Shown one piece after another: positions 19,535 through 64,000 of a DNA stretch of 64,000 nucleotides (within the stretch, counting starts at the first letter, position 1; every line of letters begins with the position of its first letter). Location: assembly GCA_964433975.1 (NCBI GenBank), contig CAYSSS010000001.1, forward strand, positions 78,257-142,256, read 5' to 3'. Position numbers and translations under genes: made by a program. Origin of the DNA: an uncultured Planctomycetia bacterium. Lineage in GTDB: Bacteria; Omnitrophota; Gorgyraeia; 2-01-FULL-45-10. The notes beneath the pieces were generated by a model. It was given only the letters and a program-made list of their open reading frames with translations, ran no database searches and was not told the origin of the DNA.

Positions 19535-19537
19535 ATA

Positions 19538-29132: not shown

Positions 29133-29134
29133 AG

Positions 29135-29731
29135 ATGAAGAAGATCGTGCTGGTGGGTGGCGGTGGGCATTGTAAGGTTGTCATTGATGCGATAGAATCC
29201 TCCGGCGAATTCGACATATGCGGAATCGTAGATCCTTCGCTTTCCAAAGGAAAATCGGTTTTAAATATAGCGGTATTAGGGAAAGATGATATTTTGCCGG
29301 AATTATTCAGGAAAGGAATAGCACATGCTTTTATAAGCGTCGGTTCTATCGGTAATTGCGATATAAGGAAGAAGATATATAAGGATCTGAAGGATACAGG
29401 GTTTAAATTACCGGTTATTGTACACCCGAAGGCAGCGGTCTCTAAGTATGTCGAATTTGGCGAAGGCGCCTTTGTTGCTGCCGGAGCAGTTATTAACGCC
29501 GATACGAAGATCGGCAAGAACGCGATCATAAATACCTCGTCTTCTGTAGATCATGATTGTGAAATAGGCGATTTCGTGCATATTGCGCCCGGAGCAATCT
29601 TAAGCGGAGGAGTTAAGATTGGCGACGGGGCCCATGTTGGTGTCGGCGCGAGGATAGTTCAGTGTTTAAGCATAAAGGAAAATTCTTTTATCAAGGCCGG
29701 CGCGTTAATCACAGAAAGTACCCTTAAGTAA
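29135..29731 (+). CDS. Hexapeptide-repeat N-acetyltransferase of the NeuD/PglD/LegH family.
   Basis: MKKIVLVGGGGHCKVVIDAIE N-terminal Rossmann-like region, then a left-handed beta-helix repeat region. Confidence 0.75.
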   Translation: MKKIVLVGGGGHCKVVIDAIESSGEFDICGIVDPSLSKGKSVLNIAVLGKDDILPELFRKGIAHAFISVGSIGNCDIRKKIYKDLKDTGFKLPVIVHPKAAVSKYVEFGEGAFVAAGAVINADTKIGKNAIINTSSSVDHDCEIGDFVHIAPGAILSGGVKIGDGAHVGVGARIVQCLSIKENSFIKAGALITESTLK

Positions 29732-34371: not shown

Positions 34372-34402
34372 TGAATCCCGGACTAAAAAGAGAGGAAGGA
34401 AT

Positions 34403-43824: not shown

Positions 43825-43828
43825 CATT

Positions 43829-45635: not shown

Positions 45636-45658
45636 GCAGCAAGAACACGAGGAGAATC

Positions 45659-46270
45659 ATGGAAAATATAGAAAAGATTTTTAAAAACTCAGCAGATATA
45701 CAACAATTTAGCAAAGGTTATTTCAGGTACCTCTGTGGATTGATGAACTGTATCGATACAAAACAGATTGAAAGTGTTGTCAGCGAATTTAGCAAGGCGC
45801 AAAAAAATCGGAATACGGTTTTTTTTATTGGAAACGGCGGTTCGGCATCTACCGCTTCACACATGGCCAATGATTTTGGATTAGGCACGCGAAAGGACGA
45901 GAAGCTGCCTTTTCGCGCCATATCTCTTACCGACAATGTCGCGTCTATGACCGCTATTGCTAATGATTGTAGTTACGACGATATTTTTATCAGACAGCTT
46001 AATCTCTATTTTAAGAAAGGTGATAAGCTGGTGGCTATCTCGGCAAGCGGCAATTCACTAAATGTGGTAAATGCCGCCAATTGGGTCAAGAAACGTGGCG
46101 GAAAGGTCATAGGCCTTGTCGGTTTTGACGGAGGAAAATTAAAAAAGATAAGCGACGTTTGCATACATGTAAAAACACCCAGAGGCGAATACGGCCCCGT
46201 TGAGGACATCCATATGATAATGGATCACCTTATATACACGTGGCTATGGTTTAAAAAACGAAAAGGATAA
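45659..46270 (+). CDS. SIS-domain sugar-phosphate isomerase, GmhA-like (sedoheptulose-7-phosphate isomerase family).
   Basis: FFIGNGGSASTASHMANDF...ISASGNS...VIGLVGFDGGKL...VEDIHMIMDH parallels E. coli GmhA motifs. Confidence 0.75.
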   Translation: MENIEKIFKNSADIQQFSKGYFRYLCGLMNCIDTKQIESVVSEFSKAQKNRNTVFFIGNGGSASTASHMANDFGLGTRKDEKLPFRAISLTDNVASMTAIANDCSYDDIFIRQLNLYFKKGDKLVAISASGNSLNVVNAANWVKKRGGKVIGLVGFDGGKLKKISDVCIHVKTPRGEYGPVEDIHMIMDHLIYTWLWFKKRKG

Positions 46271-46277
46271 AGCCGGG

Positions 46278-47201
46278 ATGAAGTCTCTTTGCGGAGAAAA
46301 TATACTCATAAGCACCTCTTCATTTGCCGCTTCTGACAAAGGGCCGCTGGAGATGCTTAAAGAGGCGGGCTGTGAAGTGATAAACAACCCCTATAAACGA
46401 AAGCTTACAAAGCCCGAGTTAACCGAGTTATTATCGAATAGTGTAACGGGCCTGATAGCAGGATTAGAAATTTTAGACAAAGAGGTGCTGTCTAAGTCTA
46501 AATTAAAGATTATATCCAGATGCGGTTCCGGGTTGTCTAATGTAGATATTGAGGCCGCCAAGGAACTGGGGATCATTGTATGTTCGACTCCGGATGCTCC
46601 GGTGGATTCAGTTGCCGAGCTTACGCTGGCAGCCATGCTGAGCCTTTTAAGAGCGATGCCCGCCATGGACAGAGAGCTTCATGATGGCAGATGGACCAAG
46701 CGAACAGGTCTTTTACTGGAAGGTAAAACCGTGGCGATCATAGGCTTTGGGCGTATCGGTAAAAAGTTGAGTCAGCTATTAGCGCCTTTTAAGGTCAGGC
46801 TATTGGTAGTAGATCCGTCTATAAAGAGCGGAGATGTTAAAACGGTTACTGTATCGCTTGAAAAAGCATTGTCAGAAGCCGATATTATCAGCATACATTC
46901 CAGCGGTAATGCTTGCCTGATGGGCGAAAGCGAATTGCGGAAAATAAAAAAAGGCGCATTTATTCTTAACGCGGCACGTGGTGGAGCTATAAATGAAGAC
47001 GCCCTCGTAAAGGCGCTGGAAGAAAAACGCGTTGCCGGGGCATGGCTTGACGTATTTGAAGAAGAGCCGTATATGGGGCCGCTGACAAAATATCCTCAAG
47101 TCATACTTACACCGCACGCGGGTTCGTACACGGTTGAGTGCAGAAAGCAGATGGAGATGGAAGCGGTCAAAAACCTTATCGGGGCTTTAAGGAAATATTA
47201 A
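46278..47201 (+). CDS. D-isomer-specific 2-hydroxyacid dehydrogenase (NAD-binding).
   Basis: GKTVAIIGFGRIGKKLSQLL NAD-binding motif and the catalytic R/E/H region ...ARGG...TPHAGSYT. Confidence 0.8.
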   Translation: MKSLCGENILISTSSFAASDKGPLEMLKEAGCEVINNPYKRKLTKPELTELLSNSVTGLIAGLEILDKEVLSKSKLKIISRCGSGLSNVDIEAAKELGIIVCSTPDAPVDSVAELTLAAMLSLLRAMPAMDRELHDGRWTKRTGLLLEGKTVAIIGFGRIGKKLSQLLAPFKVRLLVVDPSIKSGDVKTVTVSLEKALSEADIISIHSSGNACLMGESELRKIKKGAFILNAARGGAINEDALVKALEEKRVAGAWLDVFEEEPYMGPLTKYPQVILTPHAGSYTVECRKQMEMEAVKNLIGALRKY

Positions 47202-47968
47202 TGGCCAGGGAAATGCGTGAGTTAGAGAAATTGTTATTTGTTGCTGAAAAAGCGGCATGCCGCGCCGGCGCGTTCTTATCCCGGACGAAAATAAAAGATA
47301 ATAAAATACTGACCGATCTTGGAAAAGACGTAAAGATTTCCGCTGATCTACATTCGGAAAAGATCATCATAAATATGTTAAGAGCTAAATCTGAATTTGA
47401 TATTCTTACGGAGGAGAGCGGGTTTCTGCCGGGAGCTTCCGGAAAGCATTTACTTTGGATCGTTGACCCGATTGACGGAACGATGAATTTTTTACGCGGG
47501 ATCCCGATAAACTGCGTTTCTATAGGGCTATGGAGAGGCAATGAGCCTTTGCTCGGGGTAATTTATGACTTCAATAAAAATGAACTTTTTTCCGGCATAG
47601 CCCGTAAAATCGCGTACTTGAACAAAAAACGTATAAAAGTGAGCGCTCTTTCCAAAGAAGCCAGCGCCGTACTTTGCACGGGTTTTCCGGTAAATACAGA
47701 TTTTTCATCGAGAGGGCTATTAAGATTTACAAAGCAAATCCAAAACTATAAAAAGGTCCGGCTGATCGGGTCCGCTGCTTTGTCGCTCGCCTATGTTGCG
47801 GCGGGTAGAGCTGATGTTTATCGTGAAAACAATATAATGCTCTGGGATGTTGCCGCCGGCGCAGCAATTATTACCGGGGCCGGCGGAAATGTTCAGATGC
47901 TGCCTTTGGCAAAAGAAAATGCTTTTTCGGTATACGCTTCTAATAGGCGGTTATTCAGGCAGAGGTAA
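47201..47968 (+). CDS. Inositol-monophosphatase-family sugar phosphatase.
   Basis: WIVDPIDGTMNFLRGIP and ...WD.AAG motifs. The start was moved to the ATG at 47201, which overlaps the upstream stop (TAATG). Confidence 0.75.
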   Translation: MAREMRELEKLLFVAEKAACRAGAFLSRTKIKDNKILTDLGKDVKISADLHSEKIIINMLRAKSEFDILTEESGFLPGASGKHLLWIVDPIDGTMNFLRGIPINCVSIGLWRGNEPLLGVIYDFNKNELFSGIARKIAYLNKKRIKVSALSKEASAVLCTGFPVNTDFSSRGLLRFTKQIQNYKKVRLIGSAALSLAYVAAGRADVYRENNIMLWDVAAGAAIITGAGGNVQMLPLAKENAFSVYASNRRLFRQR

Positions 47969-51559: not shown

Positions 51560-52684
51560 ATGAGGATATTTTCTGTTACAATGGCGCCGATAAGCCCTCC
51601 TTATGACGACGGGCCGAAGAATATTGTGATGGCGCTGGCGAAAAAACTGCCCATGCACGATTATTATTTTGTTTCATCGCGCAAACGAAGCTTTCCGCAC
51701 ACAGCTAATACCATATTTATCAAATCCCCTTTTCAAAGAACAGGGCGGCACAGCATGGCGTTATTTCAAAAAATTTATATATTCTTCCTGACCGTTCTTT
51801 ACAAGAGCAGGATGGACCTCTTCCAGTTCTTCTTTACGCCGCAGCCATATTTTTCGTTTATCTTCAGAAGGCTCCTAAAGAATAAGAGGTCAATACAGAT
51901 AGTCTCATCGATACATACATTATTGGAAAAAAATGGAGAGGACGCGATCGGCTCTCTCTTCTTTTCGGATTATGTAGTGGTGCATTCCGAATATGCCAGG
52001 CAAAAACTTGCCGAAAAGAATGTAAAGAATATAGTAAAGATCTATCCGGCCATAGAAGAAGAGCGTTTTAACGGCGTAACGGCGCCGGATTCCTGCGGAG
52101 AGGTAAGAATAGTATACCCGGGGACATATAAAGTGCTGGCCGATGCTTATTCGCTGGGGGATTTCTGTAAAATAGCTCTGCGCGTGAAAGACGAGGTAAG
52201 CAACGCGAGGTTTGTTATGGCCTGCCGGATAAGGACAAGGGAAGACTCAGGTCTTGAGAAGAGATTCAAGTCGCTGGTAAGAGAATGCGGTCTTGAGAGA
52301 TCGTTTACTTTTCTTAATACCATAGACGAGATGCCGTCATTTTTAAAAGGATGCTCCATTGGTATAATGCCGGCCAGGCGTCCGATGAGCGGTATACTGG
52401 AGATTCCACTCGTTCTGCTCGAACTCGCGATCCTCGGTAAGCCGGTAGTCTACGGGAACGTTCCGCCGCTTGGGGAACTTGACAGCAGGGGGCTGGGCAT
52501 AATGGTATCCGATGATTCGTGCGAATCTTACGCTAAAGCGATTATAAAGTGCGTCAACGACGGCGGTTATGCTTCGATGGTTGGCGAAAGGTCAAGGAAT
52601 GCCGTAAGGGTGGATTTCACAATAGATATCGCCGCAGGCGAGTATCAACGATTATATAAAGTACTTCAGGATAAAGATGAATAG
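51560..52684 (+). CDS. GT4-like glycosyltransferase (GT-B fold).
   Basis: The C-terminal region GIMPARRPMSGILEIPLVLLELAILGKPVVYGNV...GIMVSDDS resembles the GT4 donor-binding domain. Confidence 0.55.
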   Translation: MRIFSVTMAPISPPYDDGPKNIVMALAKKLPMHDYYFVSSRKRSFPHTANTIFIKSPFQRTGRHSMALFQKIYIFFLTVLYKSRMDLFQFFFTPQPYFSFIFRRLLKNKRSIQIVSSIHTLLEKNGEDAIGSLFFSDYVVVHSEYARQKLAEKNVKNIVKIYPAIEEERFNGVTAPDSCGEVRIVYPGTYKVLADAYSLGDFCKIALRVKDEVSNARFVMACRIRTREDSGLEKRFKSLVRECGLERSFTFLNTIDEMPSFLKGCSIGIMPARRPMSGILEIPLVLLELAILGKPVVYGNVPPLGELDSRGLGIMVSDDSCESYAKAIIKCVNDGGYASMVGERSRNAVRVDFTIDIAAGEYQRLYKVLQDKDE

Positions 52685-54179
52685 CGATCAAAGAGTACGT
52701 CTGATAACGCACGACTCCTATCCGCCGGATGCCAGGACTAAAAGAGCGCTCTCCGGAATGGCCGATGTGGAGGGCGTGGTAAAACCCATTGTGGCCCTTC
52801 CCGACATTCATTTTAAGCACTCGTACCACACGCCGACGGGCGTCGTTGTAATGACAAGAGACAGAATAATACCGAAATTTGTCAACGCAAATTGCGGCAT
52901 GTCTTTTATTAAAACGCCATTCTTCGAGCGCGATATAAACAACGATACCCTGGACACGATATTCAATCACTTGCGAAATAATATAGCGGTCTCTGCCAGG
53001 AGTGCGCCTATTATCAGCAGTTCCGATCTTAAAGATATAGTAAGAAGAGGCGCAGAGTGGTCTATTGAAAAGTACGGACTCTCTCCCGACGACCTTGGCA
53101 GTTTTGAAAATAACGGCTCACTCTTAAAGGATGACACAAGAAGCATAGACGAGATCATGTCATATATACCCCAGGCCTGTCAGCAGATGGGGCTGTTGAG
53201 TTGGGGGGTCTTGGGATACGGCAATCATTTTGTGGAGCTTCATGTTGTGGAAGAGATAGTTAATGCCGAGATAGCGCAACAATTCAATATATCAAAAGGT
53301 CAGATCTGTTTTATGATCCACGGGGACTCACGCGCCTTCGGGCAGTCCATATTTGACTTTTACTCCGGCAAAGCGAAGAAGCTGTTCGGGCTGCAGCAGG
53401 TCTACAAGAAGCTGCACTATAAAATATTTTCTTCGCCGCACAGCTCACCAATAATGAAAAGTGTTCTCGATAAGCTTAATTATTATCTCAACAGGGCGAA
53501 GTCGACGGTCTATTGGAAGATGGATGGATGGAAGAAGAACGGACGCGCCTCCTTCGGCGGCTTTGACGCCCAGAGCGAGGAGGGGGTGGCTTATCTGACG
53601 AGCACTTACTCGGCCATAGATTACGGTTATGCTAACAGGGCCTACATGGCCTCCATAATCCGGGACTCCTTAAAACATGCGTTCAAAGATGATTCGGCAG
53701 AGGTGAATATTCTGTACGACGGGAACCACGATGCCCTGCAGAAGGAGGTCGTTGATGGCGTTGAATTCTATGCGCACAGGAACGGAGCGAGCAGGGCATT
53801 GCCTGCCGGTTATTTTAAGGACCATCCCGTATTTTCACAGACCGGACAGCCGATATTACTGCCAAGCTCTCTGGGAAGCCCCTCTTTTTTATGCGCCGTT
53901 ACAAAGGGATGCAAGGACTCCTATTACTCCTCCTGCCACGGTACGGGCAGGATAGTGGACAGGGGCCAGGCGAGGCAGCTCTTCACGGCAAAAGATATAT
54001 TCGAGGATATGAAGAGCAAGAATGTCAGGATATACGATTATGGAAAAGGCAACGCGTCGGAAGAGGCGCCCGGCGCTTTTAAGGACGTGGAAAAGATCCT
54101 CGAGTCTGTGATAAAGCACGGGATCGCGGAGCCGGTGGCAAGGTTAAAGCCTCTGGCGTCCCTTAAAGGTTGGAGGTAA
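52677..54179 (+). CDS. Divergent RtcB-family protein (3'-phosphate/5'-hydroxyl nucleic acid ligase superfamily).
   Basis: The RtcB metal- and GTP-binding motifs are conserved: ALPDIH (as MPDVH), NCGM (as GCGM), GYGNHFVELH (as GTGNHFIE), HGDSRAFG (as HSGSRGIG), NHDALQKE (as HHNYVQKE) and SSCHGTGR (as SCSHGAGR). Length is 500 aa. Its start overlaps the upstream GT4 gene by 8 bp. Confidence 0.75.
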   Translation: MNSDQRVRLITHDSYPPDARTKRALSGMADVEGVVKPIVALPDIHFKHSYHTPTGVVVMTRDRIIPKFVNANCGMSFIKTPFFERDINNDTLDTIFNHLRNNIAVSARSAPIISSSDLKDIVRRGAEWSIEKYGLSPDDLGSFENNGSLLKDDTRSIDEIMSYIPQACQQMGLLSWGVLGYGNHFVELHVVEEIVNAEIAQQFNISKGQICFMIHGDSRAFGQSIFDFYSGKAKKLFGLQQVYKKLHYKIFSSPHSSPIMKSVLDKLNYYLNRAKSTVYWKMDGWKKNGRASFGGFDAQSEEGVAYLTSTYSAIDYGYANRAYMASIIRDSLKHAFKDDSAEVNILYDGNHDALQKEVVDGVEFYAHRNGASRALPAGYFKDHPVFSQTGQPILLPSSLGSPSFLCAVTKGCKDSYYSSCHGTGRIVDRGQARQLFTAKDIFEDMKSKNVRIYDYGKGNASEEAPGAFKDVEKILESVIKHGIAEPVARLKPLASLKGWR

Positions 54180-54180
54180 T

Positions 54181-54801
54181 TTGATAATAGCATTTTCCGG
54201 CATTGACGGCTCAGGCAAGACCACATACGCGGTCTCGGTGGTCGAATACATAAGGGGTAAGAGCCTGAAGGCCAGGTACAGGCACAATGTAAGAGATACT
54301 TTCTATCACCTGATCCTTCATAAGGGTATAGGAGGCGTTTCGGAATCATCCAGGGCGTCCATAGAAACGGCCTTAAGAAACAAAAAGAACAGGGCGTATT
54401 TTTCTTTTGCCGGGTCCATAAAAAAAATCCTCCTTCTTATGGACCTAATCTTCTTTAATATCAGGTACGGAAGCTACAAAGGGTCCAGGGCGAAGACGCT
54501 GGTTTGCGACAGGTATTTTTATGACGAAATCGTGCAGATGAGATATCTTGGCCTTTCGCGGGAAAAGTTCATCCGTTTTTATGAGAGCCTTATAATAAGT
54601 CCGGATACGCTATTCTTCGTAAAGAGCGATCCGATGGTCGCGTACGAAAGAAAGAGCGAGTACGACAAAGAATATTTTCTGAAAAAAACGGATCTCTATT
54701 CGGACGCGTATAAGACGATAGGACACGTGGAGATAGAAGACAGCGATCTTAAAGTTAATGAGCGCTCCATAAAGGCCAAGATCGACAGGGTGATATGTTA
54801 A
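54181..54801 (+). CDS. Thymidylate-kinase-like P-loop nucleotide/sugar kinase.
   Basis: Walker A IAFSGIDGSGKTTYA and a DRY motif (VCDRYFYDE), as in dTMP kinases. It has a TTG start immediately after the RtcB-like stop. Confidence 0.6.
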   Translation: MIIAFSGIDGSGKTTYAVSVVEYIRGKSLKARYRHNVRDTFYHLILHKGIGGVSESSRASIETALRNKKNRAYFSFAGSIKKILLLMDLIFFNIRYGSYKGSRAKTLVCDRYFYDEIVQMRYLGLSREKFIRFYESLIISPDTLFFVKSDPMVAYERKSEYDKEYFLKKTDLYSDAYKTIGHVEIEDSDLKVNERSIKAKIDRVIC

Positions 54802-55745
54802 ATATGACAAAAAAACGTTTTTTACAGAAATTGCTTATAGTGATCATTACGCTGGCGTTCGCCTTTTATATCAAAAAGAACTTTCATCATCTTAGGGATA
54901 CGGTCTCTATACGGCCTTCATTTCTTATATTCCTGGTCCTGCTGAATCTGCTGAATAAGCTATTTCTCGGTTTCAAGACACGCAGAATAATGGAGTCGTT
55001 CGGCATACGCCTTTCGTTCAAAGAATGGTTCGGCATGTCATGTGTAGGTAATTTTTATAATTATCTCGTACCAAAAAGCGGCACGGCGGTCTGCGGCGTA
55101 TATATGAAGAATAAGTATGGCCTTAACTATCATAAGTACCTTAGCGTGCTGATAACCACGGGATTGATCACGATATTTACTTCCGGGCTGGTAGGCCTGG
55201 TGGTCAGCCTATTTTTCCGCTTACCTCATTTTATGGACACGGTGATCTTTATGATATTGTTCACGGGCATGATCGCGGGGCCGTCCGCTCTCTTTCTCCT
55301 GCCGAGGATCAGGCTTCCCGAAAAAGGTCTCTTTATAAAAATAAATGAATTTTTCGAAGGGTGGGAGATATTGCGCAAGGATCTTAAGACAATTATAGCG
55401 ATCTCCATGGTAGATCTTCTGGTTCTGTTATCTGTGGCGGCGCGCTACTTTATCATATTCAAGATCTTCTCCTTGCCGATCGCTTTCGCGTCTTGTGTAC
55501 TGCTTTCACCGTTTAATATAATCACTCATTTCGCCACGATAATTCCGGGTGGTTACGGTATAAAAGAGGCTACGGTAGGGGCCGTCTCAACCTTGACCAA
55601 TATATCATTTGCGGCCGGGGCGCTGGCTACTCTTACCGACAGGGTGGTCATGATGGCGGTCGCATTTATTCTGGGCCCGATCTTCAGCTTTATCCTGCTA
55701 AAGCATAGTTTTAAAGATAACAAAGGGGGAGCGCTTCATGAATAA
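54795..55745 (+). CDS. Polytopic membrane protein, possibly flippase-like (UPF0104/MprF-TM-like).
   Basis: 316 aa with about 8 predicted TM helices and no catalytic motifs I recognise. Confidence 0.3.
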   Translation: MLNMTKKRFLQKLLIVIITLAFAFYIKKNFHHLRDTVSIRPSFLIFLVLLNLLNKLFLGFKTRRIMESFGIRLSFKEWFGMSCVGNFYNYLVPKSGTAVCGVYMKNKYGLNYHKYLSVLITTGLITIFTSGLVGLVVSLFFRLPHFMDTVIFMILFTGMIAGPSALFLLPRIRLPEKGLFIKINEFFEGWEILRKDLKTIIAISMVDLLVLLSVAARYFIIFKIFSLPIAFASCVLLSPFNIITHFATIIPGGYGIKEATVGAVSTLTNISFAAGALATLTDRVVMMAVAFILGPIFSFILLKHSFKDNKGGALHE

Positions 55746-57306
55746 TCAAGGCTCATGCGCCGTAGCAATAGCCGTATTTTTTATATCGCTGTACTCTCTA
55801 TTCTGTATAGGCCATTACGGTGGTGACGGTTACGAGGATTTTCTGACGGCCAAAAGTATTGTGCTGCATCGTAGTCTGGCGCTCGGCGGCGGCCCTGATA
55901 GCGTCGGGCATGGCGATATGGACGAGTTAAATTATAAAAAAGACGCAGGAATAGAAGGACGGGATGGAAGAAAGTACAGCTCACGGGGAGGCCTTATAAT
56001 TCCGGCAATACTCTCCTTCTTTTATCTCGCGGGGCATGTCGTGTCCGGATTTTTCAAGAATATACCGCATGACTTTATAACGATCTTCTTTGTTTCGTTT
56101 TCAAACCCTGTTATTTCCGCCGTCAACTGCTTATTAATATTTCTTATTTCTTTGGGTCTCTCTTTTTCAAGGCGTACATCTATAGCGTTGACCATGATAT
56201 ACGGCCTCGCTACGATGGTGCCGGTATATTCAAGGACGGGATTCGGAGAGCCGGCAATGACATTATTCATTCTTCTGGCGGTATATTTTGCCTTAAGGTT
56301 TCAAAATACTGCTAAAATAGGATATCTCGCCGCCGCAGGCGCCGCGATAGGGCTAGCCGTTTTTACAAGATCAACGGCTATAATATTTTTACCGGCTCTT
56401 ATTTTTTATATCGGATGGATTATATTGTCAGGCAGGAAAGAGAGGGGAGGCCTCCTTAAAGAAATGGCGACGTTTGCTGTGCCATTGCTTGTTATTCTGG
56501 TCGCGGTAATCGGATGCAATTATTTCATATACGGGAAGATACTGAAGTTTGGCGGCAGGGAGGCGTTAGGCGTTACGGGACGCGTCATGGAAGCGCCTCA
56601 TCTTTTAAAAGGTTTGTACTATTATCTATTCAGCACGGGTAAAGGTTTTTTCCTGTTCAATCTTCCGCTGGTACTTTCATTCGCCGGGTTATTATTGGTA
56701 CCTTTAAAGAGAAAAAAAGAGGCGGCGCTTTTTATCCTGATATTTATCTGCAACCTTCTATTCTTCAGCATGTCCTTCAGGCGGGGGTCTCTTTTCGCGT
56801 GGGGCCCAAGGTATCTTTATCCTTCGGTTGCCGCGCTTGTGCTTTTGGCGGGATTTTTTATCGACAACAATAGAAGTCTTAAAGGCAAATTAAGTACGGC
56901 CGTTCTTTCTATAGTGGGATTTTTGATCATGGCGCCCTGCATGTTTATCAATCAATCGAAGTTCTATTTTTTTGTTAAGGAAAAGCTTAATCTGCCGGAA
57001 TATATGATCAACTTTATCCCGGATCTTTCGCCCATTCTTGGCGCATGGAAGATGTTTATATCGCGCCTGGTTTTTATCGCGAAGGGCGTGGAAGCGCCTT
57101 TCATATACAATCCTGATTACAGGCTCGTATCTCCGATAAGCGCCAGCATGGCCGAATATAATGATTTCGATTTTTGGTTTACTAAGGTGTTCTATTACAA
57201 TAGCGAATACGCTCCCGCGGTATATGGAGCTGTGTTCGCGCTTACGGCTGCAGCGTTAATATCGCTTGCCTTTATTTTAAGAGAAGCGCGCAAGAGGAGC
57301 GTTTAA
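55738..57306 (+). CDS. GT-C fold membrane glycosyltransferase-like protein (ArnT/PMT_2-like).
   Basis: 522 aa polytopic. The first loop has an acidic GDGYED motif after TM1. Confidence 0.5.
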   Translation: MNNQGSCAVAIAVFFISLYSLFCIGHYGGDGYEDFLTAKSIVLHRSLALGGGPDSVGHGDMDELNYKKDAGIEGRDGRKYSSRGGLIIPAILSFFYLAGHVVSGFFKNIPHDFITIFFVSFSNPVISAVNCLLIFLISLGLSFSRRTSIALTMIYGLATMVPVYSRTGFGEPAMTLFILLAVYFALRFQNTAKIGYLAAAGAAIGLAVFTRSTAIIFLPALIFYIGWIILSGRKERGGLLKEMATFAVPLLVILVAVIGCNYFIYGKILKFGGREALGVTGRVMEAPHLLKGLYYYLFSTGKGFFLFNLPLVLSFAGLLLVPLKRKKEAALFILIFICNLLFFSMSFRRGSLFAWGPRYLYPSVAALVLLAGFFIDNNRSLKGKLSTAVLSIVGFLIMAPCMFINQSKFYFFVKEKLNLPEYMINFIPDLSPILGAWKMFISRLVFIAKGVEAPFIYNPDYRLVSPISASMAEYNDFDFWFTKVFYYNSEYAPAVYGAVFALTAAALISLAFILREARKRSV

Positions 57307-57312
57307 ATATAG

Positions 57313-58923
57313 ATGGACGAACTCGTCAATATACAGGTTGGCCTATTAGGCAGGTCGTTTGAGATCTCTTCTATGCTCAAACAAGAGGGCGTTCCGTATT
57401 TTGAGCACGACCCCAGGGTGTCCGGTAGCCTGGATGGCATCGGGTCTATGCTTATCATAGACAAGGTGACCGGCCGCGATACTGAGTTATTGAAAGTCTA
57501 TCTGCGCAAAAAGGGCGCGATCATATGCGATGTTCTGAACAAGGAGTTAATATCCGCTCTTTGCGCTAAAAGGCTGGATCGCGGCGATAACGCACATGAT
57601 GAGTGCATCGAGCTTTACGAATCAGGGGGCGGCCATGTTATATATGTAAGCAAATATCTGCGTAGGTCGGCCGGGGACAGGAACGCTGTCGTTAAAGAGT
57701 TTTACACATCAGCCGGGATAGTAAGGGAAAGAGTGGCGTTGTTTCCCGGGTATAGAGACAGGGATATTCTGTCGCGCGCTCTGATGATGTCGTTTCACGT
57801 GCGTGGCCTGCCATTCGTCAGGCTATGGTATTATCCCAAAAGCTGCAAGTCCGTCTTTAATTTTCGGTTTGATCTGGACGAAGATACCGGCAATGACCTG
57901 GAACATATAGCGGAGGCCTCGAAAGAATTCAAAGATTGCACGACGTGGTTTGTCTCATGCGCGTCTTTCGAAAAGAATGCTCACAAAATAAAGAGGCTGA
58001 TCGATGACGGGTTTGATGTGCAATCGCATGGCTACTACCATCACACTTACGGTGACAGAAGTCAGAATGAATTAAATATAAGAAAATCGATAGATTATAT
58101 TGCCGGCCTTAGCGGGTTGGTCGAGGGCTTTGCCGCGCCCATGGGAAGATGGAACGAAGGCCTTCAGCTTGTACTGGAAAGGCTTGGGCTTCTATATAGT
58201 TCCGAGTTCTCGCTCGATTACGATGATTTGCCGTTTTATCCTGTATTGCATGGCAGGCCTTCAAGTGTATTGCAGATACCCATCCACCCTATATGCTGGG
58301 GCATTTATAAGGATGCCGGAATAGGGGATGACAATGCCATAAAAGAATACATGCAGAAAGTCATAATTAACAAACATTATGCCCGGTTGCCAGTGCTTAT
58401 TTACGGGCATCCGAGCGAAAGTATAGGCAAGAACCCTGCTTTGTTAAAGGCGATATATAAAACAGCCGGTTCTCTGTCAGATGTAAGTCGGGTGAGGTTG
58501 TCCGATCTGGCGAAATGGTGGCGCAACAGAGATAAGGTAAGATTTAAGGACGTTGTATTCAATGCCTCTAAAAAGACAATCAGCTATGCTATCAAAGGGG
58601 GCACCCATATTTCAGATCTTTGTCTCAATATACAGATAAAACCGGATAAAGTATCCTATCATAGTATTGCCGGGCCTTGCGGTGAAATATGTCTGGACGG
58701 GCTTAAATATGAAGAGATACGCAATCTCAAGGCGGATCCGGACCTGTATAGAGAGGCTGTCTGTAAGAAAAGTCGGCTGAAGAGGCTGAAAGAAGGCGTC
58801 GTTGCCATGCTCGACTGGGAAGAGTGCACACCATTAGGCGAAATAAAAAGAAATTCAATAGCGTCTAATCTAAAGTATGTGCTTAGAAGATGCGGTTTTG
58901 ATAAAGTAAAATTAAACGTCTAG
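57313..58923 (+). CDS. Polysaccharide deacetylase-like (NodB/CE4 homology) protein with N- and C-terminal extensions.
   Basis: NodB-like motifs: FRFDLDED (as TFDDG), SHGYYHH (as H-S/T-x-x-H) and AAPMGRW (as R-P-P-x-G). Confidence 0.55.
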   Translation: MDELVNIQVGLLGRSFEISSMLKQEGVPYFEHDPRVSGSLDGIGSMLIIDKVTGRDTELLKVYLRKKGAIICDVLNKELISALCAKRLDRGDNAHDECIELYESGGGHVIYVSKYLRRSAGDRNAVVKEFYTSAGIVRERVALFPGYRDRDILSRALMMSFHVRGLPFVRLWYYPKSCKSVFNFRFDLDEDTGNDLEHIAEASKEFKDCTTWFVSCASFEKNAHKIKRLIDDGFDVQSHGYYHHTYGDRSQNELNIRKSIDYIAGLSGLVEGFAAPMGRWNEGLQLVLERLGLLYSSEFSLDYDDLPFYPVLHGRPSSVLQIPIHPICWGIYKDAGIGDDNAIKEYMQKVIINKHYARLPVLIYGHPSESIGKNPALLKAIYKTAGSLSDVSRVRLSDLAKWWRNRDKVRFKDVVFNASKKTISYAIKGGTHISDLCLNIQIKPDKVSYHSIAGPCGEICLDGLKYEEIRNLKADPDLYREAVCKKSRLKRLKEGVVAMLDWEECTPLGEIKRNSIASNLKYVLRRCGFDKVKLNV

Positions 58924-58940
58924 AGCGCGGGAGCCGGAAG

Positions 58941-60839
58941 ATGAAAGAGATTGCCGATAAATTTATCGCGTTGGCCGCGAACAAAAAAAAGAACGAAGAA
59001 GCGAGGTCGTTTTTTTTGAAAGAGATAGAAGGCGAATATAATCCGCTTCTATGGAAATGTTATATATCCCATATGACAGAAAAAAGGGATAGATTTAAAA
59101 AGAAGGAGCGAATAGCTCTTCTCGGCTCATCCAACATAACGCCCGTAAAGAACATGTTGCGGTCGGTTTTTGACGCGAATAAGATCTCGACAGATTACTT
59201 CGTAGGGGAATATGGCAATTATCTTCAGGAGCTGATGCTGGATGGGTCGAAGCTCTATTCGTTTAATCCCACGATGACGATCATCCTGCTTAGCCTTCCA
59301 GATATCATGCCGTCAGTTTATGAATATCCCTTTTCGCATAACAAGAAGAGCGTTGACGATCTGCTGGCGAAGCTGTCCCGGGACTTGAGGACGGCTCTGG
59401 GCAAATATTCTTCCGCTCTTGCGAAGAACACCACTTATGTGGCCATTGTCCCATCTTATGAGGAGCCGTGCAACTACGTCTACTCTCCCGGGAGTTCGTT
59501 CAAAAGCGATAACTACTTAATGAAACTGCAGGATGCCGTTGAAAGTCTGGAGAAAGAAAAGAATAACATTGTGATGATGAATGGCAGAAGATGCGTCAGC
59601 AAGCATCCGGCCCGCAGGATCGAGGACAAGCGATACTGGTACCTTGGGAGGATCCGCTATACGGACCTATTCTTCTCTGAGGTCGCCAAAGAACTCATGG
59701 GGCTCTACAGGATCATCAATACGCCCTCAAAAAAATGTTTAATACTGGACCTCGATAATACACTGTGGGGGGGAGTGATAGGACAAGACGGCTTTGAGAA
59801 TATAGAGCTTGGCCAGGATGGCATCGGCAGGGCATATCAGGACTTTCAAAGAGAGGCCTTAAAATTGCACAAAAAAGGGATTATACTCGCGATCTGCAGT
59901 AAAAATAACGAATCGGACGCTATGGAATTCTTTAAAACGCACACGGAGATGATACTGAAGCCGGAGCATTTCGCGGCAAAGCGGATAAACTGGAGTGACA
60001 AGGCCTCCAACATAAAAGATATCGCCAGGGAGATCAATATCGGGCTGGACTCCGTGGTCTTTTTTGACGATGATCCGGCGGAGAGAAAGTGGGTGAGGGA
60101 TAGCCTGCCGCAGGTCACCGTTCCGGAGCCACCGCAGGATCAATTTTTATACGCTGAATTTCTAAAAAACTCCGAATGGTTTAAGTCCTATAAGCTTAGC
60201 GAGGAGGACCTTTCCAGAAATATTACTTATGAAGCTATTGCCAGAACGAAAGGCCTGAAAAGTTCCTCGAGTAACGAAGGCGCCTTCTTAAAGAGCCTCG
60301 CTCAATCCTTGACAATTGAACGTGTTGATGCGTCAACGGTTTCGAGAGCCGTTCAGCTTTGCCAAAAGACGAACCAATTTAACCTGACCACCAGGAGATA
60401 TCAGTTGGCGGATATTAAGGATGTTATGTCTTACAAACTTAATCATGTCTATACGATAAGGGCCAAAGACTGTTTTTGTGACTACGGTATCGTCGGCGTC
60501 TTGATCCTGAAGGGGCAGGCCTCAGACAGGTCTCTAACGATAGACACGTTTCTATTGAGCTGCAGGATCATAGGGAGAAAGATAGAGAACGTTCTATTGG
60601 ACTGGGTTAAGAGCAAGGCCAAGGCCGAAGGATACGCCAGGTTATACGGCGTATATTCAAAAACAGAAAAAAATGCCGTTTGCGCAAATATCTATAAGGA
60701 CAGCGGCTTCACTGTCGTCTACAGGCGCGGTAGAGATATTAAATACGAATGCTCCCTTGATAAAAGATTGGGGCTTTATCCGTTTGGGAAATTCGTCAAA
60801 GTAGAACTGAAGAAGAGTAGAGATGGAAAAAAAACTTAA
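58941..60839 (+). CDS. FkbH-like HAD-superfamily (subfamily IIIC) phosphatase / acyl-ACP-forming enzyme.
   Basis: LILDLDNTLWGGVIGQDG (the DxDxT HAD motif I) and ...VFFDDDPAE (motif IV). A C-terminal domain is present. It is immediately followed by an ACP gene. Confidence 0.75.
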   Translation: MKEIADKFIALAANKKKNEEARSFFLKEIEGEYNPLLWKCYISHMTEKRDRFKKKERIALLGSSNITPVKNMLRSVFDANKISTDYFVGEYGNYLQELMLDGSKLYSFNPTMTIILLSLPDIMPSVYEYPFSHNKKSVDDLLAKLSRDLRTALGKYSSALAKNTTYVAIVPSYEEPCNYVYSPGSSFKSDNYLMKLQDAVESLEKEKNNIVMMNGRRCVSKHPARRIEDKRYWYLGRIRYTDLFFSEVAKELMGLYRIINTPSKKCLILDLDNTLWGGVIGQDGFENIELGQDGIGRAYQDFQREALKLHKKGIILAICSKNNESDAMEFFKTHTEMILKPEHFAAKRINWSDKASNIKDIAREINIGLDSVVFFDDDPAERKWVRDSLPQVTVPEPPQDQFLYAEFLKNSEWFKSYKLSEEDLSRNITYEAIARTKGLKSSSSNEGAFLKSLAQSLTIERVDASTVSRAVQLCQKTNQFNLTTRRYQLADIKDVMSYKLNHVYTIRAKDCFCDYGIVGVLILKGQASDRSLTIDTFLLSCRIIGRKIENVLLDWVKSKAKAEGYARLYGVYSKTEKNAVCANIYKDSGFTVVYRRGRDIKYECSLDKRLGLYPFGKFVKVELKKSRDGKKT

Positions 60840-61062
60840 ATTTCTGATAGCGAACTGCTGCCAGATAGAGCCATCGGATGTGGGAGACGATGCCGGTGTA
60901 AATGCCACACCTAACTGGGATTCTTTCGGGCACCTTCAGATAATGGTATGTGTCGAGCAGGAGTTTGGCGTCGTATTGGATACAAAGACCATAGCGCAGC
61001 TGACATCGTATAAAGATATTATCAGATACTTGAAAGCGACCAGGAAGAAGAATGGAAAGTAG
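60823..61062 (+). CDS. Acyl carrier protein.
   Basis: 79 aa. The phosphopantetheine attachment motif is WDSFGHLQIMV (DS). Confidence 0.75.
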   Translation: MEKKLKFLIANCCQIEPSDVGDDAGVNATPNWDSFGHLQIMVCVEQEFGVVLDTKTIAQLTSYKDIIRYLKATRKKNGK

Positions 61063-62176
61063 TGTAAGGATTCGTGGTTATGAGGCGCAGGACAAAGGCG
61101 CGGTATTCTCCCTTCTGTCCTCGTTTTACGCCAACATGGATAGCGAGGCAAGCTGGGAGCGCCTTTATATGGACAATCCATCCGGCAGGGCAATAATATC
61201 CGTAGTTCAAGAGCCGCTTAAAAAAAATATAATCGGCCACTATTCCGTGATAAAAATGCCAATGACCGTATTTGGCAAAGAACGCATGGGGGGTAAAGGG
61301 GAAGGAGAGATAGTCGACTTTTCCGTAGTTAAGCAGCTGCTGCGCGACAGAAGCATACCGAATCGCTCTTTTTCCGCGGAGTTATTGAGTCACACCGTTA
61401 TGGAGTCGCTCAATGAAGGACTGAAGCTTATATGTACAAATCCCAGCAACTTGGCCCTTAAATCACATCTGGAGGCGGGATTTAAGGCCATCAAGCAAAG
61501 ATTCGACATATTCATATTCGTATTAAGCGCGAAATATTTTGCGCATCTACTGTCAGAAAAGTCCCGGTTAAAAGTTCTTAGCGCCGCAGCAGGTTTTGCT
61601 TTATGCGCAATATATAAATTATTCCACGCGATCACTATCCTGTATTACAGAGACAGTTCTATATCTCTTGAGCCATTCGAATCATTTGGCGATGTGACGG
61701 ATGAGCTGTACGAAAAGTTTTCCAGGAGCTATACGTTCATAGCTATAGAAAGAAAGCGCGCCCATCTGAACTGGAGGTTTGGCGCGAATGAGTACAGCAA
61801 ATTCATAATAAAGATCGGTGAAGAAGCGGTCGGCTACATGGTCCTGCATATATTTGTAAATCCTAACGGCTTTAAAGAAGCTAATATCGTGGACTATATC
61901 CTGCTGCCGCGATCCTGGGGCAAGTTCGCGGCGATCGTCGTGGAGGCGCTGAGAATCGCGAGGAAAAACAGCTGCGATTTTATAAGATTAAATTATATGT
62001 ACGACATGAAAGAAAAGTTTATGCTTTCAAAGCTTATAAAGAAGCTTCGTTTTATCGGCCGGGAAGATAAGAGAAATATCGTCGTATTCTTATCACCGGA
62101 GCTTAAGCAATTGGAAGCGAAGATTCTGGATGTGGATAATTGGTATTTTACGGACCTGTATTTTGAGAACTACTGA
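61052..62176 (+). CDS. Putative acyltransferase (GNAT / FemAB-like fold).
   Basis: 374 aa with no TM helices. Its position after the FkbH-like and ACP genes suggests an acyl-transfer role. I did not identify a definitive motif. Confidence 0.3.
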   Translation: MESSVRIRGYEAQDKGAVFSLLSSFYANMDSEASWERLYMDNPSGRAIISVVQEPLKKNIIGHYSVIKMPMTVFGKERMGGKGEGEIVDFSVVKQLLRDRSIPNRSFSAELLSHTVMESLNEGLKLICTNPSNLALKSHLEAGFKAIKQRFDIFIFVLSAKYFAHLLSEKSRLKVLSAAAGFALCAIYKLFHAITILYYRDSSISLEPFESFGDVTDELYEKFSRSYTFIAIERKRAHLNWRFGANEYSKFIIKIGEEAVGYMVLHIFVNPNGFKEANIVDYILLPRSWGKFAAIVVEALRIARKNSCDFIRLNYMYDMKEKFMLSKLIKKLRFIGREDKRNIVVFLSPELKQLEAKILDVDNWYFTDLYFENY

Positions 62177-62178
62177 AA

Positions 62179-63141
62179 ATGGATAAGAAAAAAGTAAATA
62201 TAATAGTATTGAATTATAACGGGAGGCAGCTTCTCGAAAAATATATACCGTCGATCATCGAGGCAGGGAGACACTCCGATCATCTTTGCAGGGTTTCGGT
62301 GGTAGATAATAAAAGCACGGACGGCAGCGCAGAGTTTCTAAAAGCAAATTATAATGGCCTCGATGTTTATGAGGCCAAAGAAAACAGGGTGCTGTGTTCG
62401 CAGAACGACTATCTCTCTTCCATCGATGACGATATTGTTATATTTCTTAATAATGACATCAGGGTTGACCGCAATTTTGTAGATCCTTTAATTGGCCATT
62501 TTCATGACGAGAACCTGCTATTCGTAGCTCCAAAAGAACTGAGCCCGGAAGGTAAATATCAGGGAAATCTTAATAAGCTGTCATTCAGGCTCGGGCTTAT
62601 TTCTACCTCGGTCATGAGAGAAGGACGGGATAGCGTACAATATGACAGCTCGATAGGGGGCGGCGCGTTTGACAGAAAAAAGCTCGTGTATTTAGGCGGT
62701 TTTGACGATCTGTACCTACCCGGAATATTTGAGGACCTGGATGTGTGCTATCGAGGCTGGAAGCATGACTGGAAAGGGATATACGAGCCGGCAAGTTTTT
62801 ATTACCACGAGCAGGGGACAAGCTTCAGGGCAAAATACGGCGACGAGGGAAAGGCGATACTTGCCCACAGAAACGCATTCTTGTTTTTCTGGAAAAATGT
62901 GACGTCCAAGAGGATGCTTTTTATCCACATAATGTTTATACCTGTTTTATTGGCATGGAATCTTTTGAGGGGCAGAACGCTTTTTATAAAGGGTTTTTTT
63001 CAGGCGCTTGACAAATTAGGAATAGCTATAAATAAAAGGGCTTCGGTAAAAAAACAATTTCGCATCACGGATGAAGAGGTGTTACGAAGGCCGCGGATGC
63101 CGTATCAGATCATTACTGATCCGCCGCATACGAGCATCTGA
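62179..63141 (+). CDS. GT2-family glycosyltransferase (GT-A fold).
   Basis: VNIIVLNYNGRQLLEKYIPSI...VVDNKSTDGS...DDDIVIFLNNDIRVD (DxD). Confidence 0.8.
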   Translation: MDKKKVNIIVLNYNGRQLLEKYIPSIIEAGRHSDHLCRVSVVDNKSTDGSAEFLKANYNGLDVYEAKENRVLCSQNDYLSSIDDDIVIFLNNDIRVDRNFVDPLIGHFHDENLLFVAPKELSPEGKYQGNLNKLSFRLGLISTSVMREGRDSVQYDSSIGGGAFDRKKLVYLGGFDDLYLPGIFEDLDVCYRGWKHDWKGIYEPASFYYHEQGTSFRAKYGDEGKAILAHRNAFLFFWKNVTSKRMLFIHIMFIPVLLAWNLLRGRTLFIKGFFQALDKLGIAINKRASVKKQFRITDEEVLRRPRMPYQIITDPPHTSI

Positions 63142-63887
63142 TTGCCTATGACATAATCTGTGTAGTGCGACGCCATTACAAGTACTGTCTTGGCGATGTC
63201 TATGGGCTCGGCGTTCCTTTTTTGTGGAACTTCGGTTGCCAGTTTGCTCTTTAGCCAGGCAGGTATGTGCGCGCCCAGATCGGTCTCTGTTAAACCCGGC
63301 GATACAACATTGAAAAATATGTTCTTGGAGGCATACTCCACAGCAAGCGCTCTGGTAAATCCTAACAACGCGGTCTTGGCTGTGACGTATTTGGTAAATC
63401 CGGGAGGCGGCGTGCTGTTCGAATAGACGGTTGTAATATTTATTATCTTCCCATATCCGTTCTTTAACATTATTGGTAGTACGGCTTTTGTGGTATTAAA
63501 GGCGCCCTTTAAGGCGACATCGATGTCTTTTTGCATGTCATCCCACTCTATTTTTTCGAACGGGACAGGCAATGCGTCGCTCATGGCGTTATTGACTATG
63601 ATGTCTATCTTTCCGAATTTTTGGACGACTTTTTTTATCATTGCGTTGACATCGGATATTCTTCCGACATCGGCTTTTATTGCAATGGCTCTTTTCCGGC
63701 AGCTCTTTATATCAGCGACCACATTTACAGCGTCTTTTTCGCCGTGGTTATAGTTGACTATAACGGTGGCTCCGTGGGACGCGAAGAGTTTTGCAGTTGC
63801 GGCGCCTATGCCGCGGCTTGCGCCGGTAACAAGTACTATTTTGCCGCTAAAGTCGATACCGTGAGTCATTTTTTTTATATCGCTCAT
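63105..63887 (-). CDS. Short-chain dehydrogenase/reductase, FabG-like (3-oxoacyl-ACP reductase family).
   Basis: KIVLVTGASRGIGAATAKLFASHGATV, ...NNAM..., and the Y-x-x-x-K catalytic motif at YVTAKTA. The track extends the ORF to 63983, but the internal Met (MSDIKK) at 63887 is the more plausible start. This is the only − strand gene. Its 3' end overlaps the GT2 gene convergently. Confidence 0.7.
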   Translation of the reverse strand: MSDIKKMTHGIDFSGKIVLVTGASRGIGAATAKLFASHGATVIVNYNHGEKDAVNVVADIKSCRKRAIAIKADVGRISDVNAMIKKVVQKFGKIDIIVNNAMSDALPVPFEKIEWDDMQKDIDVALKGAFNTTKAVLPIMLKNGYGKIINITTVYSNSTPPPGFTKYVTAKTALLGFTRALAVEYASKNIFFNVVSPGLTETDLGAHIPAWLKSKLATEVPQKRNAEPIDIAKTVLVMASHYTDYVIGNQMLVCGGSVMI

Positions 63888-64000
63888 GTCTATCCCTTTC
63901 TTTGGAGGAGGGTTTACCATGACAGTGATAGTTCCGTCAGTCACGGTTTCGCCTCTTTGGTTTGTTATAGAAATATTCAGCACGATCTTGCCTAAAAGTG

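Follow-up and report, generated by a model that had tools for sequence, protein, structure and literature searches.

Several trans-acyltransferase (trans-AT) and hybrid polyketide synthases (PKSs), among them those of bryostatin (BryA) and FR901464, have loading modules of the type DH-KR-FkbH-ACP, composed of dehydratase (DH), ketoreductase (KR), FkbH and acyl carrier protein (ACP) domains. He et al. (Angew Chem 2014) reportedly showed that the DH and KR of the FR901464 loading module turn glyceryl-ACP into pyruvoyl-ACP and then into lactyl-ACP. Here we describe a stretch of 64,000 nucleotides, called the window below, from an uncultured Planctomycetia bacterium placed in Omnitrophota by GTDB (assembly GCA_964433975.1, contig CAYSSS010000001.1, positions 78,257 to 142,256). 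Its end encodes an FkbH enzyme, an ACP and a fusion of a MaoC dehydratase with a short-chain dehydrogenase/reductase (SDR), next to a protein with two GNAT folds (the tandem GNAT). The best explanation of the whole, to which we give a probability of about 0.5, is that a three-carbon (C3) acyl group is built on the carrier protein and then put on a sugar.

FkbH enzymes also take part in the methoxymalonyl-ACP pathway (FkbG/H/I/J/K; OzmB/D/E/F/G), which brings a glycolytic glyceryl unit onto a dedicated small ACP through a Cys thioester (PMC9057759). The characterised enzymes convert 1,3-bisphosphoglycerate to glyceryl-ACP via a glyceryl-S-enzyme intermediate (PMC9057759), and an FkbH loading domain has been encoded as the conversion of 1,3-bisphosphoglycerate and ACP to D-lactate-ACP (PMC7901079). 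Long-form FkbH proteins are found in sugar-modification loci as well, as Campylobacter jejuni cj1302 and Bacteroides fragilis BF1531 (3slr); they carry a HAD-IIIC phosphatase annotation, as does the FkbH of the window, and these FkbH genes of glycan loci are known as annotations only. Immune and phage recognition of bacterial surface sugars is influenced by the unusual N- and O-acyl groups that these carry, and the genetic basis of the glyceroyl-type N-acyl groups on pseudaminic acid is not known, a 2017 Tannerella study having named it a major challenge (PMC5378307). Acylation of a sugar from a carrier protein has precedents: Nod factor synthesis, with a GT2 (NodC), a deacetylase (NodB), an acyltransferase (NodA) and an ACP (NodF), and also LpxC/LpxD, follow a deacetylate-then-reacylate logic with a dedicated acyl-ACP, and in Dlt/MBOAT O-acylation of cell-wall polymers the acyl donor is a small carrier protein reserved for the purpose and the acceptor a surface glycopolymer.

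The five open reading frames (ORFs) singled out in the first-pass annotation were all confirmed in the ORF listing at the coordinates it had assigned, the convergent one being mis-delimited. The first of them, at 58941..60839 on the plus strand, encodes a 632-aa protein that matches TIGR01686 with 288 bits (cutoff 146.65) over profile positions 2-320 of 323, and TIGR01681 with 68.4 bits (cutoff 35.75). Its assignment as an FkbH protein thus holds and, the whole of the TIGR01686 profile being covered, the C-terminal domain is in place. This long-form enzyme begins with an alpha/beta domain, continues with the HAD-IIIC phosphatase domain and ends in an acyl-transfer domain of GNAT fold, which contains Cys541. 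Residues 55-421 align with B. fragilis BF1531 in the Protein Data Bank (PDB 3slr; E=5.6e-50), and the AlphaFold model (pLDDT 87) likewise has three domains, the last being a GNAT fold that matches small GNATs. An alignment of 24 homologues shows no variation in the HAD catalytic motifs D270-L-D272-N-T, S320-K321 and D377 and almost none at D376; S540-C541-R542 of the C-terminal domain is invariant among them too. By our reading of the sequence, Cys541 appears to occupy the expected place of GNAT motif A, and we infer that it carries the glyceryl thioester, since an S-enzyme intermediate has been described for OzmB (PMC9057759). The N-terminal domain, of about 260 aa, is extra when compared with the short PKS-type OzmB (366 aa), which is without it. 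Some homologues of this domain match Lipase_GDSL_2.

The next gene (60823..61062, plus strand) encodes a carrier protein of 79 aa, which aligns over its full length with the solved ACPs 1x3o (E=4e-5) and 2ehs and matches NCBIfam ACP models (E=3e-5). Its phosphopantetheine serine, Ser34, lies in N-W-D-S-F-G-H and falls on the DSL serine of both, so that an ACP with a DSF serine context had been correctly recognised. The motif W-D-S-x-x-H is common to the partner ACPs of FkbH genes in other loci, five of which (L011, L012, L013, L094 and L095) have partner ACPs that pass the Pfam PP-binding model PF00550 at 22-26 bits. A profile made from the FkbH-partner ACPs gives at least 100 bits on those partners and at most 50 on AcpP encoded next to FabG, and separates the partners from housekeeping AcpP. 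ACP identity across the Omnitrophota loci is 72-91%. The gene overlaps the FkbH stop by 17 nt and the tandem-GNAT start by 11 nt.

The gene that converges on this cluster had been described as a FabG-like reductase ending at 63887. The sequence past the window end, read from the source contig L001, which is the ENA metagenome contig ERZ27248937:k141_168704 (295,816 bp) and was matched to the window through an exact hit of the FkbH protein, gives another picture: it is a 413-aa MaoC dehydratase::SDR fusion, on the minus strand from window position 63105 to 64346, past the window end (L001:14165-15406). The window holds the 3' part of the gene (63105..64000), with the SDR domain at about 63105-63842 and residues 116-153, the hot-dog tail and linker, at 63885-64000; past the window end, at equivalent positions 64002-64346, come the Pfam MaoC core and the start codon. 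Position 63887 is an internal Met. The ORF start at GTG 63983 on the minus strand (63984-64000) is no true gene start and is an edge artefact, because the frame is open to the window edge. Residues 26-115 match MaoC_dehydratas (PF01575) with 65.5 bits (cutoff 27), and residues 169-364 match adh_short with 169.6 bits. Among 24 homologues of the fusion, D43 and H48 of the MaoC hydratase motif G-D-x-x-P-x-H are invariant, and so are T174-G175, R178-G179-I180-G181, Y320 and K324 of the SDR (TGxxRGIG, YxxxK). This architecture is uncommon (about fifty full-length cluster representatives among the top hits), with both active sites conserved. FabG models are the best NCBIfam matches of the SDR, though it stays below all FabG equivalog cutoffs (189 against 297.75 for TIGR01830, 182 against 296 for NF004198); it is the C-terminal half of a fusion and not the FabG of fatty-acid synthesis, a stand-alone protein of about 245 aa.

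KAS III or other fatty-acid-like genes, which the first-pass annotation had looked to past 63983, were not found in the 8 kb of source contig beyond the window end. There, the MaoC domain is followed by sugar-nucleotide genes instead; the genes past MaoC-SDR encode an NAD-dependent epimerase/dehydratase, a hexapeptide acyltransferase, an AGE-like protein, a UDP-GlcNAc 2-epimerase, a GT4, a GT9 and a further GT4. No ketosynthase (KS) is present among the annotated ORFs of the window or of the 8 kb beyond it, and neither a KAS nor a malonyl transferase nor an enoyl reductase lies near the module on either side of the window end. An FkbI-type acyl-CoA dehydrogenase, an FkbK-type HADH and an FkbG O-methyltransferase are likewise absent from the block 51560-64000 and from the downstream sequence.

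The coupling of the fusion with FkbH is strict. Each of the nine independent MaoC-SDR fusion loci examined (the window, L005, L007, L008 and L011-L015) has an FkbH homologue within about 2 kb, compared with 0 of the 78 plain SDR loci from the same metagenome scan, 46 of which are at least 6 kb long. These plain-SDR loci form a negative control that came from the scan itself: made with an alignment of the fusion, it used the TGxSRGI motif as its pattern and therefore returned plain, FabG-like SDRs for the most part. The FkbH homologues of L011-L015 show 31-34% identity. L012, from KSB1, has both the MaoC-SDR fusion and FkbH, and in L011 the fusion lies beside a small GNAT, CMP-transferases and NeuB. 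In L013 and L015 the genes stand in the order MaoC-SDR, FkbH, ACP, collinear with the PKS module. From the FkbH side, a sample of two homologues, picked for long contigs only (L094 and L095), had an adjacent MaoC in both cases, as a fusion in L094 and as a stand-alone protein in L095. The latter locus is thaumarchaeal and also encodes an ACP, a holo-ACP synthase (PPTase), a CE4 deacetylase, a hexapeptide transferase and a GT2. FkbH genes without MaoC do exist, as shown by a Methylosinus plasmid with KASIII-FkbH-ACP next to a PKS.

The same parts also occur within single proteins. The PKS of Ensifer canadensis pT173a (WP_203528975.1) starts with MaoC (19-96), SDR (293-507), FkbH, PP-binding (1159-1220) and KS domains, and the Erwinia rhapontici plasmid pERA53 (L097, 5143-9047) encodes an Antibiotic_NAT::FkbH protein (837 aa) and, directly after it, a MaoC::SDR::PP-binding protein (464 aa). 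Since they are fused in the Ensifer and Erwinia proteins, all four parts belong in one pathway, and that they form one functional unit is very probable. The Antibiotic_NAT::FkbH fusion ties the Erwinia pathway to an N-acyltransferase; the acyltransferases found beside the same parts in other loci are of the GNAT, Antibiotic_NAT or MBOAT type.

Three of these loci deserve a description of their own. The neighbours of the Erwinia genes encode an ATP-grasp enzyme, an MFS transporter, a CDP-alcohol phosphatidyltransferase and an aminotransferase, and L097 looks like a small-molecule cluster, its proteins being annotated as 'HAD-IIIC phosphatase' and 'SDR' only. L094 (1243-8686), a metagenome contig not related to the window, encodes FkbH, MaoC-SDR, a carrier protein of 80 aa (GWDSLSH), an MBOAT and two GDSL/SGNH-like proteins, and is apparently a Dlt/Pat-like O-acylation system fed by the same C3 chemistry. 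In the high-GC locus L015 (2506-9711), MaoC-SDR, FkbH and ACP come after a divergent KS/CLF-like pair, a FabZ-like hot-dog protein and a second ACP; with roles read from the translations, these genes suggest a type II system for fatty acids or polyketides with lactate or glycerate as primer.

In the window, the ACP gene is followed by a plus-strand gene (61052..62176) for a 374-aa protein that is sub-threshold by sequence (PF00583, 19.8 bits; cutoff 20.7). Its AlphaFold model (pLDDT 90) has two GNAT folds in one chain, and Foldseek against the PDB matches it to N-myristoyltransferases (NMTs) and to the Eis-like 3n7z and 2i00 (E ~1e-13). The protein had been called Fem/GNAT-like, and of this the GNAT part stands on the model. 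The Fem part does not: there is no Pfam FemAB or Acetyltransf_6 match, the family profile against PDB sequences gives nothing, and the top 50 Foldseek matches are of the NMT/Eis type, with no Fem. The family is small, 23 close homologues having been found, of which the named ones are all from Omnitrophota metagenome-assembled genomes (MAGs). Such MAGs are also the closest genomes with the 374-aa protein, which is 75% identical to that of Omnitrophica RIFCSPHIGHO2_02_FULL_46_20. Distant relatives carry Acetyltransf_9 and include the fusions GT2::tandem-GNAT (P0085) and deacetylase::tandem-GNAT (P0126). In an hhalign alignment, the YQGKG loop of the distant relative P0100, of the Q/RxxGxG/A type that binds CoA, corresponds in the window family to a longer L-R-D-R-S-I-P-N-R-S, without Gly-x-Gly, which would be compatible with a donor other than CoA.

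Two further plus-strand genes frame this arrangement. A CE4-type polysaccharide deacetylase of 536 aa is encoded at 57313..58923 (Pfam Polysacc_deac_1, 32.2 bits; cutoff 23.1); its nearest solved relative is Helicobacter pylori PgdA (3qbu), and no signal peptide is visible in its sequence. The gene at 62179..63141 encodes a 320-aa protein which, as had been proposed, is a GT2 glycosyltransferase (Pfam Glycos_transf_2, 37.2 bits; cutoff 23.3), and its end overlaps that of the convergent MaoC-SDR gene by 37 nt. FkbH and ACP thus occupy the exact interval from the deacetylase gene to the tandem-GNAT gene, and reading frames overlap there. The gene content also raised the possibility of a pathway like Arn for undecaprenyl-phosphate amino sugars, with the GT2 in the role of ArnC, the deacetylase in that of ArnD and PMT_2 in that of ArnT, which was not adopted: the GT2 is without a PDB sequence relative, its best family matches are MftF and EpsD-type, and to our eye its E-D-x-D...R motif looks like the WbbL type, not that of a polyprenyl-phosphate GT2.

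Six independent tandem-GNAT loci (the window, L005, L006, L007, L008 and L010) were compared by tblastn. All six have LPG_synthase_TM, PMT_2, the 536-aa deacetylase, the tandem GNAT, the GT2, the epimerase and the hexapeptide transferase; the deacetylase is in each case directly upstream of the module, and the GT2, syntenic and 55-75% identical throughout, is always directly downstream of the tandem GNAT. On this common background the window, L005, L007 and L008 have FkbH, ACP and MaoC-SDR together, and L006 and L010 have none of the three, even though these genes lie on both sides of the tandem GNAT and GT2 and on opposite strands. The deacetylase stop adjoins the tandem-GNAT start in L006. 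L010 has other genes, between PMT_2 and the deacetylase (3099-5461), for a DltC-like small protein, an SDR and an AMP-dependent ligase. The small protein has no Pfam match; weak matches to DltC models (E=2e-4), an LDSIG motif and the neighbouring AMP-ligase make it ACP-like, and we take it as a probable carrier protein. It seems that acyl-donor cassettes have been exchanged while the machinery on the acceptor side stayed fixed, which would make these very large Omnitrophota glycan loci a case of modular cassette exchange. The tandem GNAT of the FkbH-negative L006 shows 40% identity, compared with 54-89% for the neighbouring proteins, which makes it the least conserved protein of the backbone; more distant FkbH-positive loci, at 46-48%, lie above this value. 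This drop in identity suggests that the donor site of the tandem GNAT tracks the cassette.

From these parts a pathway can be proposed. FkbH would take a glycolytic C3 unit, which we infer to be 1,3-bisphosphoglycerate as for the characterised enzymes, dephosphorylate it and hold it as a thioester on Cys541, from where the glyceryl group would pass to the phosphopantetheine on Ser34 of the ACP. The MaoC hot-dog domain would then dehydrate 2,3-dihydroxypropanoyl-ACP, the enol would tautomerise to pyruvoyl-ACP, and the fused SDR domain would reduce the 2-keto group to give lactyl-ACP. With MaoC fused to the SDR, the labile alpha-keto thioester could be reduced without delay. As the window has the parts of PKS lactate loading as separate proteins, lactyl-ACP is the most economical product, and a lactyl group is accordingly the one we favour, with some confidence. 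The first-pass annotation had proposed a glyceroyl or 3-hydroxyacyl group, which the presence of MaoC-SDR and the absence of any chain-extension gene speak against. The locus and its relatives offer a concrete four-part enzyme set, for which successive masses of +88 Da for glyceryl, +70 Da for pyruvoyl and +72 Da for lactyl on the carrier protein are predicted.

The last step is less certain. The tandem GNAT would move the acyl group from the ACP to the sugar, and is the obvious candidate for the transferase because of the overlap of its frame with that of the ACP, the acyltransferases found elsewhere and the swap of the cassette in L010; we put its role as transferase at an even chance. The likeliest acceptor would be an amine that the neighbouring, cytoplasmic CE4 deacetylase frees on a residue with which the GT2 next to it works, an assignment that we consider possible at somewhat under even odds. 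Deacetylase and GT2 fusions to the tandem GNAT among its distant relatives point to a deacetylate-then-reacylate chemistry on a HexNAc, and the transfer, by a soluble GNAT, is predicted to be cytoplasmic. The earlier observations were on the whole right. Their interpretation, in which a dedicated ACP receives a C3 unit from FkbH for use in glycan acylation, is supported in outline by the joint gain and loss, the cassette swap and the acyltransferase neighbours; it was wrong on the reductase and probably on the acyl group.

In its predicted working the module resembles PKS lactate loading and the NodB/NodA/NodF set, and its proteins belong to the FkbH, ACP, MaoC, SDR and GNAT families. In comparison with the PKS loading module, the same four catalytic parts are found, in the same order in the collinear L013 and L015; the DH of the Ensifer PKS is MaoC-type and its KR a classical SDR, as in the window; and the predicted chemistry, from glyceryl-ACP through pyruvoyl-ACP to lactyl-ACP, is the same. 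In contrast to the PKS module, the window has separate proteins (FkbH, ACP, MaoC::SDR) with no ketosynthase after them, and its acyl group is predicted to go to an acyltransferase and not to prime a polyketide. With neither KS nor megasynthase, the window module is thus not a PKS module. With the methoxymalonyl-ACP pathway it would share the loading of a dedicated small ACP by FkbH, but that pathway tailors the unit with an HADH-family dehydrogenase, an acyl-CoA dehydrogenase and an O-methyltransferase, which oxidise it to hydroxymalonyl or methoxymalonyl, whereas the window has the dehydratase-reductase fusion instead and is no methoxymalonyl pathway. Compared with NodA and LpxD, the acyltransferase of the window is an unrelated tandem GNAT, and its acyl group would be a C3 unit made by FkbH, whereas that of Nod factors is a fatty acid from a ketosynthase. 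As in Dlt/MBOAT systems, the donor in the window would be a small carrier protein, and L094 joins FkbH, MaoC-SDR and an ACP to MBOAT and GDSL proteins; the window itself is without an MBOAT.

A polyketide loading module and a glycan-tailoring cassette hence share the same parts, which the annotation names 'HAD-IIIC family phosphatase' and 'SDR family oxidoreductase' hide. In the literature that could be searched, which was limited, we found no report that links FkbH with MaoC or describes an association of MaoC-SDR with a tandem GNAT, and nothing usable on lactoyl sugars or on HAD-IIIC with glycosylation. The module is a plausible source of C3 acyl groups on microbial sugars. We suggest, tentatively and as the more doubtful extension of this idea, that FkbH, a W-D-S-x-x-H ACP and MaoC, with or without SDR, are a portable generator of C3 acyl-ACP, a free-standing relative of the PKS lactate loading module, which occurs across phyla and in bacteria and archaea feeds varied acyltransferases (tandem GNAT, small GNAT, Antibiotic_NAT, MBOAT), giving lactyl or pyruvoyl groups on surface glycans. 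The tandem GNAT of Omnitrophota would then take acyl-ACP, its CoA loop having been given up, and sister lineages would swap in an AMP-ligase/ACP cassette. If true, this would provide the missing genetic basis for C3 N-acyl decorations of sugars.

Several observations weigh against the proposed pathway. The tandem GNAT and GT2 are kept in L006 and L010 without FkbH or its ACP, and in L006 no carrier protein was seen within 10 kb; because it persists in these two loci, the tandem GNAT cannot depend absolutely on the FkbH-partner ACP. The window ACP itself scores 17.9 bits against PF00550, just under the gathering score of 20.8, and between the window and the Ensifer PKS the MaoC and SDR domains share only some 25% identity. 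As the MaoC of the thaumarchaeal locus L095 has no fused SDR, the end product may be pyruvoyl in some systems. Lastly, a legionaminic-acid-type pathway lies 25-30 kb upstream of the module, and its amines are alternative acceptors, so that the acceptor could instead be a nonulosonic acid made there.

These points bear most directly on an explanation in which the C3 acyl-ACP is made as proposed, the tandem GNAT is an ordinary acyl-CoA-dependent N-acyltransferase, and another enzyme, either the N-terminal domain of FkbH or an unlinked protein, delivers the group, possibly to the legionaminic-acid-type sugar. Besides the persistence of tandem GNAT and GT2 in L006 and L010, the canonical CoA-type motifs of distant tandem-GNAT relatives (Acetyltransf_9, QGKG loop) would fit it, as would the parts of L011 beside NeuB, CMP-transferases and a small GNAT, the nonulosonic-acid gene set at window 27061-36231, and the matches of some FkbH N-terminal-domain homologues to Lipase_GDSL_2. 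We nevertheless hold it to be unlikely, though not negligible, given the insertion of FkbH-ACP precisely between deacetylase and tandem GNAT with overlapping frames, the other carrier-protein cassette that L010 puts in place rather than nothing, and the divergence of the tandem GNAT in L006 relative both to its neighbours and to the FkbH-positive loci. A different view of the acyl group, with an unmodified glyceroyl, or a 3-hydroxyacyl made by the SDR, on the glycan, would make the reductase a fatty-acid FabG and leave MaoC idle in the C3 chemistry. N-glyceroyl sugars are documented, such as Pse5Am7Gra in Tannerella forsythia (PMC5378307), the flagellar glycosylation island of C. jejuni contains the FkbH-domain gene cj1302 (PMC7099621), and FabG models are the nearest to the SDR. 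Yet the SDR falls short of all FabG equivalog cutoffs (189 vs 297.75) and always comes joined to a MaoC with invariant catalytic Asp and His; in this fused form it accompanies FkbH in 9/9 loci and is joined to FkbH/ACP in Ensifer and Erwinia. With no KAS, malonyl transferase or enoyl reductase nearby, we regard this view as distinctly improbable.

The proposed pathway, a C3 acyl-ACP serving glycan acylation, also has to be set against uses outside the glycan. The classical FkbH systems are PKS-associated, the KASIII-FkbH-ACP set of Methylosinus is next to a PKS and the parts in L015 are next to KS, FabZ and ACP, all of which would suit a polyketide or lipid building block, be it hydroxymalonyl- or methoxymalonyl-ACP, a tetronate or a lactate-primed fatty chain. 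We consider such a product very improbable here, as the window and the 8 kb beyond it have no ketosynthase among their annotated ORFs, no FkbI-type acyl-CoA dehydrogenase, FkbK-type HADH or FkbG O-methyltransferase adjoins the module, and the neighbours, conserved in six loci, are glycosyltransferases, a deacetylase and flippase-like and GT-C proteins. Even less credible to us is a Fem-type, aminoacyl-tRNA-dependent role for the 374-aa protein, which would put an amino acid onto a sugar amine and leave FkbH/ACP as a separate matter: the tandem-GNAT fold is also that of FemABX and an RtcB RNA ligase homologue lies 7 kb upstream, but neither FemAB nor Acetyltransf_6 nor a PDB profile match was obtained, the top 50 structural matches are NMT/Eis-type, and RtcB is absent from L007 and L010, both of which keep the tandem GNAT.

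The rest of the window was annotated by Pfam scans of its ORFs. The long ORFs from 148 to 63141 are almost all on the plus strand, and together the scanned ORFs form a very large glycan locus, with a PglF-like dehydratase, an O-antigen ligase, a carbamoyltransferase, a flippase, and numerous methyltransferases and glycosyltransferases of families GT2 and GT4. Between a GT1 and a flippase-like gene, at 52677-54801 (plus strand), lie genes for a full-length homologue of the RtcB RNA ligase (278 bits with Pfam) and for a P-loop protein resembling thymidylate kinase. RtcB is present in L005, L006 and L008 too, and the pair of RtcB and the Tmk-like protein in L006 and L008; both are absent in L007 and L010.

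The carbamoyltransferase is split into a 79-aa ORF (4171-4410), which we read as its N-terminus, and a 386-aa ORF (4605-5765), which lacks about the first 190 profile positions of Carbam_trans_N, both on the plus strand. This points to a pseudogene, a frameshift or an assembly error, and since the gene is split, the carbamoylation predicted for the locus may not occur. Between the O-antigen ligase and the carbamoyltransferase lies a papain-family cysteine protease (3366-4178, plus strand; Peptidase_C1, 81.7 bits).

Four B12-binding radical SAM enzymes are encoded on the plus strand at 7488-8795, 21230-22804, 23525-25576 and 41594-43090, and such enzymes are also found in L006, L007 and L010. 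With two FkbM-type and several class I methyltransferases, they suggest heavy methylation of the glycan, possibly including C-methylation. Six PMT_2 (GT-C) proteins, a weak GT87-like match and YfhO are located at 5752-7491, 12099-21205 and 55738-57306 (plus strand), a set of periplasmic-face transferases that is unusually large for one locus.

The plus-strand legionaminic-acid-type nonulosonic acid pathway (27061-36231), whose amino groups were named above as alternative acceptors of a C3 acyl group, comprises a dehydratase, a DegT aminotransferase, a PglD-like N-acetyltransferase, NeuB, a hydrolysing 2-epimerase, a HisF/HisH-like amidotransferase, a CBS-NTP-transferase and a CMP-transferase. 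Further on, at 40833-47968 (plus strand), an HpcH/HpaI aldolase, a second CMP-sugar synthetase, a GFO/IDH oxidoreductase, a SIS isomerase, a 2-hydroxyacid dehydrogenase and an inositol-monophosphatase-like protein lie together and may constitute a second acidic-sugar pathway.

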